Source: Gammaproteobacteria bacterium (GTDB lineage: Bacteria > Pseudomonadota > Gammaproteobacteria > Eutrophobiales > Eutrophobiaceae). From it: DNA of 64,000 nucleotides. The DNA lies in the NCBI GenBank assembly GCA_963422205.2, contig CAXMWX010000007.1, positions 64,001 to 128,000 of the forward strand, given 5' to 3'. The position numbers and the translations under genes are program-made. This document shows, piece by piece, positions 34,290 to 41,261 of this stretch. The notes below the pieces were generated by a model that made no database searches, was not told the origin of the DNA, and was given only the letters and a program-made list of their open reading frames with translations. The first letter of the stretch is position 1. Every line of letters begins with the position of its first letter.

Positions 34290-34533
34290 TGTATAAGTTC
34301 AGAAACCTATTGCACTATTCTCATGAATGCGGTCTGCGAGCGTTTTCATCGAACCATGGTTGGTGAGCCTGCCGAACCATTCAAGAGCAGTCCTGCCTGT
34401 GCGTCCCTTCACGCAGACAGGCTGGCTGGTCAAATACAATGGCCTGCGCCCGCACAAAGGACTGGGATGATAAGCCCCGGCGCAGTACATTATCCAGCAT
34501 AACAAAAAGGGCAATAGGTGGTGGACTCATACA
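34290..34533 (+). mobile_element. Internally deleted IS481-family element (MITE-like)
   Basis: Ends TGTATAAGTTCAGAAACCTATTGC and GCAATAGGTGGTGGACTCATACA form TGT...ACA inverted repeats; residual MNAVCERFHRT and WLVKYNGLRPHKGL. Confidence 0.75.
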
Positions 34534-34621
34534 TGGTGTTGAGCCGCTTAATCAAGTATTCTCAAATATCCACCCATCTGATGTACTTGCAAATTGAATT
34601 AACATAGTAATAGTAGAGCCC

Positions 34622-35511
34622 ATGGATAAATTGCCAAAATTTCAAGAAACCTTTATTCCATTTTATATATTTTGAATCAGAAATCGACCGCAATCTCCTT
34701 AGAAGAGATACGCCGCAAGGTGCGGGATAGGTTTTACGCTCGTTTACCCCGTGAATTGCTGCAACAACAAACTTCTACGGGTACAAATACACTATTAGAT
34801 AGAATAGGTTGGGCCGCTTCTTACTTGTTTTTAGCTGGCTATCTTGAGAAACCCAAAAGAGGTTTTTATCAAATTGGCAGTAAAGGCGCACAATCTTTAC
34901 ACAAGGGCAGTCTGCCTCTGAAAGAGTTAAAAAATCAACCAGAATATCAGACTCACCAGGCATTCCATCATCAAAAATCAGGTAAGGAAGATGAAGCAAC
35001 GGAGGAGAATACGCCTATCGATAATATTGACAAGGGCATTCAGGCTATTGAGCAAGAAATCAAAAACAAACTGCTTGAGAAAATCAGCAGCATCAATCCT
35101 TATGATTTTGAAAAAGTCATTTTAGACTTGCTGCAAGCTATGGGCTATGGCGATACAATTTCAACAGCAAAATCCAATGATGGCGGGATTGATGGCATAG
35201 TCAATGAAGACAAGCTGGGGCTGGATAAAATTTATATTCAGGCCAAACGTTTTAATGAAGGCAAGGTGCGTGAAAAAGAGATCCGGGATTTTATTGGCGC
35301 GATGAGCGGCGATACAAGCAAAGGCATTTTTGTGACGACTTCAGATTTTGATCATAAAGCAATCGAAAAAGTAAAAACAGCACACCATAAAATCAGATTA
35401 ATTAACGGTGCTGAATTAGTAAAACTTATGTATGACTACGGCATTGGCGTACAGGTAGAAAGTATTATCAAAATCAAAAAGGTTAATTCCGGCTTTTTTG
35501 AAGAACAGTGA
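34622..35511 (+). CDS. mrr: Mrr-family type IV restriction endonuclease (frameshift near 34660)
   Basis: Mrr_N LDRIGWAASYL; SNDGGIDG, DKLGLDKIYIQAKR, FVTTSDF, LINGAEL; N-terminus MDKLPKFQETFIP starts at 34622 in another frame. Confidence 0.88.
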
Positions 35512-35528
35512 GCAGACAGATTCACCAT

Positions 35529-36353
35529 TCAATGCCGGATACGCAAAAACACCGGATGTTTGAATTTCCCCTTTTTCGTCACGCCATAATACTTGAACCT
35601 AATGGTCGTACCTGTGTCAGGCGGGTTTTCCCGCTGGGCGTCGGTAAACCCGGAGCCCACTTTAACCGCTACGCCCTCTTTTGTGATGCACAGCAGTGCC
35701 CCCATTTTGCCTGCATATTTGCCCTTGCCCGGCAGAACCGCTTCCACTATGCATTCCGCATCCAAATGCTGTTTCATCTTCAAGGCCGAATTCAAGCGCC
35801 CGGTCTGATAGCCCAGATCCGGGTTTCTTACCACGACGCCCTCGCCACCTTTGCTCACCACCTCATGCAGAAACTGCTTGAGCTGTTCCTGACGGGTAAT
35901 TGGATACTGTTTAATGATTTTAATGGGCGTATGCGGATGCTCCGCCAGATAATCCCGCAGCACCTGTAACCGCTCCATCAACCCGCCCGGTTGCTCGGGC
36001 ACTTCAAAAATCCAGTGGGTGATGCCATGCCAGCGTTCATCCGGCTTTTTGCGCCTGACGATACTGCTGGTTTGTTCAAAATCCTGTACGCCTGTCCACA
36101 ACTCCCCATCGATGGCAAACGGCGGATACTGTTTGACAAACCAATCCGGCGCCATGATCTTCTCACCGCTGCGCGTCAGCAACTGCCGGCCATCCCAAAA
36201 CCCGCGAATACCATCCAGTTTCTCACTCATCACCCAGCCCACCACCGGCATCCCGTCATCGTAGGTTTTCAGTAAAAACAAATCCGGTTTGTCCGCCGCC
36301 AGCAAAAAACCCGGCAGGCATAACAGACACAACAGACCGATGATTTTTTTCAT
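35529..36353 (-). CDS. Periplasmic minimal ATP-dependent DNA ligase (Lig E type)
   Basis: Signal peptide MKKIIGLLCLLCLPGFLLA; motif I SEKLDGIR, IDGELW, GGEGVVVR, LKMK, OB-fold VGSGF. Confidence 0.9.
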   Translation of the reverse strand: MKKIIGLLCLLCLPGFLLAADKPDLFLLKTYDDGMPVVGWVMSEKLDGIRGFWDGRQLLTRSGEKIMAPDWFVKQYPPFAIDGELWTGVQDFEQTSSIVRRKKPDERWHGITHWIFEVPEQPGGLMERLQVLRDYLAEHPHTPIKIIKQYPITRQEQLKQFLHEVVSKGGEGVVVRNPDLGYQTGRLNSALKMKQHLDAECIVEAVLPGKGKYAGKMGALLCITKEGVAVKVGSGFTDAQRENPPDTGTTIRFKYYGVTKKGKFKHPVFLRIRH

Positions 36354-36576
36354 GGGATGCGACCTTGAGTTTATTGATCGGCACGCAACAGCAACAGCAT
36401 TCAGATGCTGTCCGCTACGCTCTAAGGCCGGTGATTGAGCATCAAACCCCTGGCCATACTGCTCAAATAGGCGCGGGGTTCTCTGATTGAATGAAGTCAA
36501 GTTCACTTCAGAGTACATCAAACGAGAATGCTTATCAATTTTGATGGGGCGACAGTCAGATGGCGATTAACTCTTT

Positions 36577-37627
36577 TGTACAAGTTCAAAAACCTATTGC
36601 CCTATTCGTAAGAGAGAGAACGAGAGCACTATCAGCATATAGGGTATCGAATAAAAGGCTTTTATCGCACGGGCAGCCATGCAATAAGGGCGGACATGAA
36701 TAATCAAATCGCCGCACAGCGTCCCTGCTTGCGTGCTGCGTGCAGGCAAGTCAGTGTGCTTAGATTCTGGGACAAGCATGGCCTGACCCGCCCTTGACCA
36801 CAGTGGCAGTGGTTCGACAAGCTCACCCACCAGAGCCGCCGTACCCTGTATGCCTGGCGCAAAGCCTACCGCGAGTGGGGACTGTCTGGCTTGTGTCCGA
36901 CCCCCAAAGCACCGAAGCGCACTCGCCGCTGACCACAAGCGGTTATCCAGCAGATACGCCAACGGCGCCAAGACCTGCCCAATCTGGATAAAGAGCAGTG
37001 TCAGGTACTGCTCAGATCCTGGTGTCAGGCCAGGGGATTGCCCTGTCCCAGTACTTCGACCATTGGCCGCCCTGTCTGTGCGGGTACGCAGACGGGCTGA
37101 TTGCCGATACCCCCGACAAGAGGCGAATCTCACCCCCGGCCTTGAGCCCGAAGGGGAAAGCCAAAGCCTATCGAAGAACCCCCGTCACACGCCGCCCTAA
37201 AGGCTATCGCCCCAGCCAGATTGGCGAGTGTGTGGGACTGGACGCCATCGAGCGGCGTAGGCAGGTGGCCGGGGGGTATCTCCTCACCTCTATTGACGAA
37301 GCCAGTGGCTATGCCTTAGTCCTGGCGGTGCCGAAACGGAGCAGCCAAGCTGCCAGAGACTTCTTTGAGACGTGTTTCCGCTTGACCCCCTTCCCCATCC
37401 AGCAGGTGATTACCGACAGTGGCGTTACGTTCAAGGGCGCGTTTGACCAACGGCTCAATGATAGTCAGATCCTGCATCTATACACCTATCCCAAAACCCC
37501 AAAAATGAATGCCGTGGCTGGTGAGCTTGTCGAACCATCTGTGAGCGCTTTAACCGCACCATGGTTGGTGAGCCTGCCGAACCCTATCCAGTACAACAAA
37601 AAGGGCAATAGGGGGTGGGCGCATACA
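36577..37627 (+). mobile_element. IS481-family element, transposase pseudogene with five short insertions
   Basis: TGTACAAGTTCAAAAACCTATTGC ... GCAATAGGGGGTGGGCGCATACA ends; fragments SRRTLYAWRK, GLDAIE, ITDSG, TYPKTPKMNA(VC)ERFNRT. Confidence 0.82.
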
Positions 37628-37689: not shown

Positions 37690-37765
37690 GCCGGATTAGC
37701 TCAGTTGGTAGAGCACCCGCCTTGTAAGCGGACGGTCGGGAGTTCGAGTCCCCCATCCGGCACCA
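37690..37765 (+). tRNA. tRNA-Thr(TGT)
   Basis: GCCGGAT/ATCCGGC acceptor stem, AGCTCAGTTGGTAGAGC D arm, CTTGTAA anticodon loop, TTCGAGT, encoded CCA. Confidence 0.9.
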
Positions 37766-40675: not shown

Positions 40676-41261
40676 AGGAAGTTAAGCGGTCTACATTGGC
40701 TTCTCACCTGTCTGCGTGCGGACACGCACAGGCAGGCGGAGCGGTTTCAGGATCACCTGATAGAGGGTATCACGGCGATGATGAAACCGAAATTCGGTCT
40801 CTTTGAGATGATCATAACACCTCTCTGCGAATGCCTTTGCTGGCATCGGGCACGATCTCCGTGAACAGCTGTCCGTGACGCTGGAGCAGGCCAAAGACGA
40901 GGGTTTTCTGCTTGGCACCGCGACCACGTTTGCCACGGATGCACTTCCGGCCAAAGCAGGATTCATCGACTTCGACCGCGCCGACAAAGGGCGATTGTTG
41001 TTCACAAAAATCCGCAATGCGCTGGCGCAGTTTGAGGGAAATCGGGTGTACCGAGCTCAGGCGAATGCCGGTCAATCGGGCACTGTCGGAGGCGGCCAAC
41101 TCCAGGGCAAAACAGCGGATCAGTTGCCGAAATGTCCGCTCGGTGATTTAAGGAACGGATGTAATACCTGTTTTTCCTATTCATTTCACCTGCCTGTGCG
41201 TGTTCGTACGCAGACAGGGAAGATTAGCACCTGTCTGGTAGGGCTTAACTTCCCATGACCC
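40669..41261 (-). mobile_element. IS1595-family element, degraded transposase
   Basis: TIRs GAGTCATAGGAAGTTAAGC / GCTTAACTTCCCATGACCC; fragments MNRKNRYY, GAVEVDESCFG..GKRGRGA..KTLVFGLLQR and HLKETEFRF in different frames. Confidence 0.82.

Follow-up and report, generated by a model that had tools for sequence, protein, structure and literature searches.

A 23-nt repeat in dead IS481-family copies as a candidate for a very small mobile DNA

Two copies of an insertion sequence (IS) of the IS481 family, lying close together in one stretch of gammaproteobacterial DNA, have transposase genes interrupted by the same 23-nt sequence, which raises the question of what this sequence is and how it came to lie there. 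The stretch, hereafter the window, comprises 64,000 nucleotides (C9:64001-128000) of a 2.99-Mb assembly (G000; 14 contigs, 97.97% complete). A first-pass annotation of the window had reported four such 23-mers, and all four were found again at the same positions and on the same strands. With moderate confidence, we take them to be copies of a very small non-coding mobile repeat, which hitch-hikes here on a dead IS amplified in trans and belongs to a widespread but patchily distributed family.

The 23-nt unit and its sites in one IS481-family element

The first unit (34358-34380, plus strand) reads GGT-TGG-TGAGCCTGCCGAA-CCA-T and separates NRT from IQEQ in the transposase text (site C). The second (36809-36831, minus strand) lies antisense to the transposase gene between HSG and KSRR (site A), and the third (37516-37538, plus strand) falls between NAV and CERF (site B); all three were delimited from the sequence and from an alignment of IS copies. 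The fourth (37563-37585, plus strand) is a hybrid that joins the left flank of site C to the right flank of a further site, D, and marks the place where a crossover between two direct units deleted the 229 bp separating sites C and D. It had been described as occupying the same site as the first unit and abutting a deletion; the left flank and the deletion agree with this, and the right flank makes it a C/D hybrid rather than a plain site-C insertion.

The four units are not expected from base composition. The 13-nt core TGAGCYTGYCGAA, with at most one mismatch allowed, matches the window four times against 0.35 expected, and none of 100 shuffles reaches four. When filled and empty sites are compared among the IS copies of this genome, the insert proves to be 23 nt long, or 24 nt at site D of some copies, and it is not surrounded by a target duplication, as had been proposed from the window sequence. 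Each unit is preceded by a T, which leaves its boundaries uncertain by 1 nt. An 8-nt repeat, CGAACCAT, flanks the first unit and is specific to that site.

Two intact homologues, P0001 (348 aa) and P0002 (347 aa), contain no 23-mer and read HSGKSRRTLYAW, NAVCERFNRT and RT(L/I)QEQ uninterrupted, as well as KMNAVCERFNRT(L/I)QEQ and QYIIENK without a break, and relative to them the reading frame of the window copy switches precisely at the 23-mers. The earlier proposals that excision restores the transposase text and that each 23-mer shifts the frame, for which alignment to intact IS481 relatives had been named as the check, are thus confirmed. Because the inserts lie in a conserved coding frame, the length of the unit, its boundaries and the lack of a duplication can be read to the base.

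The longer host copy (36577-37627, plus strand; 1051 bp from TGTACAAG to GCATACA) is a dead element with HTH and rve (DDE) regions that has lost the 229 bp between sites C and D. Its HTH_28 match scores 28 bits (cut-off 25), and its rve match (E 9.5e-07, 29.5 bits) stays under the cut-off of 32.6 because only a fragment was scanned. Full-length homologues carry PF00665 and HTH domains, and one of them is named 'IS481 family transposase' by NCBI. Consistent with IS481 membership, the element encodes a DDE transposase with an rve core and an N-terminal HTH, and it has terminal inverted repeats and multiple dispersed copies, whose ends TGTA(C/T)AAG...(C/T)ATACA are held in common; target duplications of the IS copies themselves were not recognisable. 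The shorter host copy (34290-34533, plus strand; 244 bp from TGTATAAG to CTCATACA) is internally deleted and resembles a miniature inverted-repeat transposable element (MITE), with site C filled and sites B and D empty.

Other lesions add to those made by the units, namely three or four hairpin inserts of a second kind, a 2-nt deletion and a TGG-to-TGA stop (36930-36932, plus strand) at an invariant tryptophan, W89 of P0001. A tblastn search of the assembly with an intact homologue found no unbroken copy, every copy being broken across at least two frames, and the IS is dead for several independent reasons. In the main subfamily of copies (window 36780-36835), the 2-nt deletion lies upstream of unit A and, together with the 23-nt insert, gives a net gain of 21 nt that regains the original frame; the TGA lies between, and older copies with unit A do not have the 2-nt deletion. 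This frame regain may have come about by chance (1 in 3) or may reflect selection to keep the frame open once the insert was in place.

A search of the whole genome for the core with at most one mismatch returned 53 matches, 33 of them full 23-mers and the other 20 without the flanks. All 33 full units lie inside 16 copies or fragments of this one dead element, which bears out the observation, made by eye in the window, that none occurs in intact genes. The alignment of these 16 copies and fragments, spread over five contigs, contains four recurrent unit sites. Site A, where the unit runs opposite to the gene, is filled in 10 copies, empty in none and truncated inside the unit in one. The unit has the same orientation as the gene at the other three sites: site B is filled in nine copies, hybrid (B/D) in two and empty in one; site C is filled in two, hybrid (C/D) in four and empty in four; and site D, between QYI and IQHN, is filled in six and empty in one, with the six B/D and C/D hybrids counted here again. 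The hybrids vary in crossover point and in the sites joined, and their classes, at least four in number, imply at least four deletion events between direct units.

Older fragments, 83-88% identical to the main subfamily, already hold units at both site A and site B, so the units predate the last copying burst and were copied along with the IS. In the main subfamily itself, identity among eight copies is 98.1-100%, and the units go along with these copies. Contigs from three sequencing runs, all of one study, show the units as well as the other variants of the IS, and no contig lacks unit A or unit B, contigs being blind to rare forms and silent on excision or expression.

The same unit in other genomes

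The 17-mer GGTGAGCYTGYCGAACC was scanned over one genome per species (596 Gb) and was found at 118 or more loci in Chloroflexota, Nitrospirota, Bacteroidota, Cyanobacteria, Planctomycetota, several classes of Pseudomonadota and others. By our own arithmetic some 280 matches would arise by chance, so the raw count says little; the information lies in the flanks. Directly upstream of the match, the prefix TC[AG]T occurs in 82 of 127 distinct matches among those listed, against about 1 in 128 by chance, and six among the matches listed start with GGTT, like the window units. The outer stem covaries, with none of 500 shuffles reaching the observed score or paired fraction, although some 40-50% of the sequences have no outer stem.

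In the genomes of these six matches the core occurs 647 times in a Binatia chromosome (G064), 199 times in a Fibrobacter genome (G063), 49 times in G065, 48 times in Cuspidothrix and five times in Dolichospermum, against 0-1 for a reversed-pattern control in the same genomes. Density reaches one unit per 6 kb in some genomes. The unit there reads (Y)GGT-NNN-TGAGCYTGYCGAA-N'N'N', in which the triplets CCC/GGG, CCT/AGG, CGT/ACG, CAC/GTG and TGG/CCA covary, and in the first 400 kb of G064 a perfect 3-bp stem encloses 56 of 68 cores. The general layout is therefore 5'-GGT, a variable 3-bp stem (NNN), the core, the stem complement N'N'N' and one further base, and the window units, GGT-TGG-core-CCA-T, fit it exactly.

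Occurrence of the unit is patchy at every level sampled, which is the picture expected of mobile repeats. Among 301 genomes sampled from the phylum of this bacterium, the Pseudomonadota, 17 contain at least 10 cores (maximum 163; maximum 7 for the reversed control). In the bacterium's own family, this genome has 32 exact cores and a second genome, G034, has 42, against 0-6 in the other 59 relatives. The 42 cores of G034 are cargo of IS5-type MITEs of about 130 nt (L139-L158), which have inverted ends GGAAACTCTGAATAAG and CTAA/TTAG duplications and carry two core units each in inverted orientation. In a plasmid collection, the core was matched in Moraxella, Phyllobacterium, Nitratireductor and Comamonas plasmids, mostly with no annotated feature beneath it and with the weak E-values of a short query.

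Units also lie within units. In G064, a complete 23-nt unit interrupts the core of another one 42 times after core position 6 and 33 times after core position 8; in G063 the first kind occurs six times, and the control gives none at either position. Multi-level nests exist, and the split cores of G064 show gaps after position 6 of 23 nt (nine) and 46 nt (six) along with many other lengths, which arise because the nests are multi-level and have different split points. If the core pairs T1-A13, G2.A12, A3.G11 and G4-C10, which is our own reading, both split points would fall in its five-base loop. Taken with the filled and empty alleles of the IS sites, the nests make discrete insertion of 23 nt the simplest account. 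Having both alleles of the same sites side by side provides unusually clean evidence on repeats of about 20-25 nt.

Database searches assigned the unit to no described family. Eight loci with typical units, other than the window, reached at best 31 bits in Rfam against a gathering score of 97 (AaHKsRNA41), translations of the unit matched no family in Pfam or NCBIfam, and exact-string searches for the core as DNA or RNA and for its peptides, in literature outside subscription papers and figures, returned only primers and unrelated text. The local inserts are tied in this way to a widespread repeat family of which we could not find a description in the literature searched.

Translated units yield the recurring words PFVVSLSNHER, FDKLRANG, VRPELVEG and MVRQAHHER (L018, L069, L071, L012), and these words likely seed spurious small open reading frames (ORFs) in annotations. 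Since the units break frames and seed deletions, they turn up in genome annotation in the guise of frameshifted pseudogenes and of spurious small ORFs such as PFVVSLSNHE. The core was also seen within long, real reading frames, in a linker between carrier and condensation domains of a polyketide synthase/non-ribosomal peptide synthetase and in a gene for a class A penicillin-binding protein (L242:1501 in Cuspidothrix; L266:1501), where it may represent in-frame insertions tolerated by the proteins.

Mobile repeat, import or transposon targeting

Units were inserted precisely and in either orientation at four sites of the IS481-family transposase gene, and direct unit pairs provided the crossover points for internal deletions. 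In the account we favour, insertion would take place at the level of DNA and would favour unpaired or loop DNA, a preference suggested because units elsewhere nest in predicted loops of other units. The units would be moved in trans by an enzyme other than Y1/RAYT and would be passengers in this genome, persisting since the broken IS was amplified in trans or homogenised by recombination. For the movement itself, insertion into unpaired DNA via a single-stranded intermediate, catalysed by an enzyme other than Y1/RAYT, is our best guess, a tentative one to which we give clearly less than an even chance. We know of no enzyme for repeats of about 20-25 nt. If this account holds, larger mobile DNA can serve as a vehicle for very small mobile DNA and be eroded by it.

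A number of observations weigh against it. No mobilising enzyme was found. The unit folds at only -1.4 to -2.7 kcal/mol (z -0.07 to -0.84), no more stably than shuffled sequence, and when the four emptied IS sites were folded, the junction bases were mostly unpaired and not clearly in hairpin loops. An autonomous copy able to amplify the dead IS is found neither in the assembly nor in the two relatives that have this IS. To explain how sites B and C are occupied from copy to copy, recombination, repeated insertion or precise loss has to be invoked. Moreover, empty site C in all four copies that have it (C3:59267, C3:325922, C7:403385 and C12:7986) reads ACCAGTCAAG (Ser), whereas ACCATTCAAG (Ile/Leu) is found in the homologues and results from the flanks of filled sites; the altered base lies exactly at the insertion point and could be an excision scar or a protecting mutation that destroyed the target.

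The location of the units is a further difficulty. All 33 lie within 11.5 kb of IS DNA, or 0.4% of the genome, and outside IS DNA this genome yielded no unit standing alone, whether intact or eroded; a search for eroded units with at most two mismatches gave nine stemmed matches against four in the control, none with the GGT prefix. At least four independent insertions in 0.4% of the genome and none elsewhere would be very unlikely if insertion were random, so some targeting, local hopping or import is needed. An equal density in other DNA, which would have spoken against a link to IS elements, is thus not seen in this genome, and the IS-only location is real.

One way to explain it is that the riddled IS was imported ready-made: the insertions would have been made in another, unit-dense host, and the IS would have arrived in more than one variant by horizontal transfer, with its units immobile here. 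The IS occurs in only two of 60 relatives searched (G031 and G048), one of which has a near-intact ORF of 323 aa and neither of which has units, and the lack of stand-alone units, the patchy core counts in the family and the unit densities of some other genomes all agree with such an origin. Diverged subfamilies with different fill patterns would, however, require several transfers, and among 5.8 billion clustered proteins a translated unit inside this transposase appears only in this genome's own ORFs. Import is rather unlikely in our estimate.

A bolder extension of the mobile-repeat account would make the hairpin, with a 13-nt core conserved from phylum to phylum, the smallest mobile DNA, homing to exposed single-strand loops, its own included, by means of a widespread, unrecognised enzyme other than Y1/RAYT, with IS481 intermediates as its targets in this genome and hence a transposon-disabling effect. 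We regard this as unlikely.

Direction towards IS DNA has also to be considered without that extension. The unit or its enzyme would prefer DNA under transposition, such as single-stranded or circular IS481 intermediates, and would disable the IS, either as an anti-transposon device or as a parasite of parasites. The confinement of all units to IS DNA, with no eroded copies elsewhere, suits this idea, as do the presence of four or more separate sites within a single 1-kb gene, where the catalytic-Glu motif VCERFNRT is flanked by two of them, the near-restriction of a second hairpin family to IS-derived repeats that include an IS1595-like pseudogene, and the base change at the insertion point in the only copies with an empty site C. 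In the other loci and genomes covered, the association is not seen. No unit occurs in 80 related IS481 loci from metagenomes, which were the best 80 of 108 tblastn matches and hence biased to intact copies, or at the 10 loci checked in the genomes of G031 and G048, and in five unit-rich genomes none of 122 neighbouring frames is a transposase, the units lying mostly between ordinary genes such as dnaK/dnaJ and those for TonB-dependent receptors and tRNA synthetases. The lack of a candidate enzyme and the presence of other, unrelated lesions shared by the IS copies also argue against IS-directed insertion, which we judge distinctly unlikely.

The first-pass annotation had suggested that the 23-mers accumulate in or actively disable IS elements and might form a transposon-inactivating system. 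The accumulation is genuine in this genome, and the idea of a dedicated inactivating system is not supported. Because the IS bias of this genome does not generalise, we read it as hitch-hiking combined with import or local preference rather than as a defence system, and keep directed insertion as a competing explanation.

The distribution within the element might also have arisen with no transposition at all, if one ancestral 23-mer had spread by template switching or gene conversion and segments had then been exchanged among copies. Site C does match the unit's 3' end over 7-8 nt (CG[A/C]ACCAT), and shared flanks and hybrid units make recombination among copies evident. Sites A, B and D, on the other hand, have no such microhomology, and identical 23-nt unit boundaries, dispersed and nested, recur in unrelated genomes, leaving this explanation improbable.

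Spread by a HUH/RAYT enzyme, as first proposed, fared worse. A small imperfect palindrome without target duplication and in both orientations is what single-strand transposition would allow. The search for such an enzyme, made with PF01797 (Y1_Tnp) only, gave no match in this genome while being positive in six of 14 control genomes, and it gave none in G063 or G065 in spite of their 199 and 49 cores. No core lies within 1.5 kb to the left or right of the single RAYT-like ORF of G064, Y1 matches are not enriched in unit-rich genomes of the 301 sampled (7 of 17 against 158 of 284 others), and the 23-mers contain no GTAG or CGTC tag. A repetitive extragenic palindromic (REP)-like unit moved by a RAYT/HUH (Y1) transposase is accordingly very improbable.

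That the inserts are tolerated, either cut out of the RNA or skipped by the ribosome, with transposase still being made, is scarcely credible: the frame regained at site A and a stop of a leak-prone kind, TGA at an invariant Trp codon, could be cited for it, but one unit is antisense to the gene, the regained frame still contains the TGA, further frameshifts come from the 26-nt hairpin insert and from units B and C/D, the contigs of the three runs (contigs only) show no form without unit A or B, and the same orientation and the intact frame upon skipping that mark a recoding or bypass element or an intron were not found.

Known small repeats, the second hairpin family and neighbouring genes

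Among known kinds of repeat, the closest appear to be the small dispersed repeats (SDR) of cyanobacteria, namely of Nostoc and its relatives. SDR4-6 of heterocyst-forming cyanobacteria, attributed to work by Elhai et al. in 2008, are reportedly 21-27 nt long, variably present and nested, with no known transposase. The likeness to this description extends to length, non-coding nature, dispersal, variable presence and location inside other repeats: the unit measures 23 nt (24 at some D sites), is variably present at sites B, C and D, and is nested in units, a MITE and an IS. It occurs in Nostocales as well, with the Cuspidothrix and Dolichospermum cores lying partly in heptamer repeat arrays. 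Unlike the SDR, it is found in many phyla beyond cyanobacteria and within a transposase frame, and its nesting maps to two core positions. One core in many phyla, at up to 647 per genome and nesting in itself, turns a local oddity into a general question, namely which gene tracks the unit-rich genomes.

The palindromic elements of Rickettsia are said, after Ogata et al. in 2000, to lie in coding genes, to be 100-150 bp long and in frame, and to be tolerated by the proteins. They share with the unit the character of palindromic selfish DNA inside reading frames, and differ from it in that the unit is 23 nt long, breaks the frame and lies in a dead gene.

The first-pass annotation had called the 23-mers minimal REP-like units. 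Minimal units of a dispersed repeat family they are, and the REP tag, the RAYT link and the stable stem did not hold up. By the definition in PMC3733652, a REP has a conserved GTAG/CGTC tag at one end of a stable stem-loop. Like REPs and REPINs (PMC3116915, PMC3733652), the unit is short, imperfectly palindromic, highly repeated, patchy and, in G034, present in inverted pairs; it differs in its 23 nt, against 20-40 bp with a strong stem, and in having no tag and no RAYT association. Terminal complementarity of the 23-nt unit amounts to 3-5 bp only. Neither a RAYT gene flanked by REPs nor a GTAG/CGTC tag on a stable stem-loop was found, and the units of this genome are not extragenic, all 33 lying in the IS transposase gene, those of other genomes being mostly intergenic.

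With MITEs the unit has in common that it is non-autonomous, multi-copy and dependent on functions in trans, and in G034 units are MITE cargo. PMC3733652 gives 70-300 bp for MITEs, several times the length of the unit, which also has no target duplication and lacks the 15-30 bp terminal inverted repeats that MITEs combine with target-site duplication. Likeness to a tRNA T-arm, a Chi-like GCTGGTG in unit B and likeness to a LexA box were considered and dropped, as was a footprint of the IS terminal repeats, the IS ends TGTACAAG being unlike the unit.

The second kind of hairpin in the IS, family B, comprises near-perfect hairpins of 26-30 nt whose arms, CCTGYCTGTGCG / CGCAGACAGG, are constant and whose loops vary; these hairpins too are present in some IS copies and missing from others. 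In the window, one near-perfect hairpin, CCTGCCTGTGCG..CGCAGACAGG, occupies 34392-34421 (delimited from sequence and copy alignment); an insert of about 27 nt at 36723-36750 is in frame and absent from the copy at C7:344.7k; and a frame-shifting 26-nt insert at 37071-37096 falls between STIGR and LIAD. Loose matches to family B lie inside this IS in 18 of 58 cases, and about a dozen true ones occur elsewhere, almost confined to other repeated IS-derived DNA and including window positions 40707 and 41190. The minus strand of window ~40700-41260 contains a broken IS1595-like transposase with family B hairpins, recognised by its translation (EVDESCFGRKCIRGKRGRGAKQKTLVFG), and this pseudogene is repeated at C3:306.5-307.2k, C5:282.9-283.7k and C11:258.0k.

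The two IS copies of the window have the same orientation and bracket a 2-kb segment (34290-37627 overall) in the layout of a composite transposon. The segment encodes an Mrr-type restriction endonuclease (34630-35511) and a secreted-looking ATP-dependent DNA ligase (35529-36353, minus strand). A tRNA-Thr gene (37690-37765) begins 63 bp downstream of the IS.

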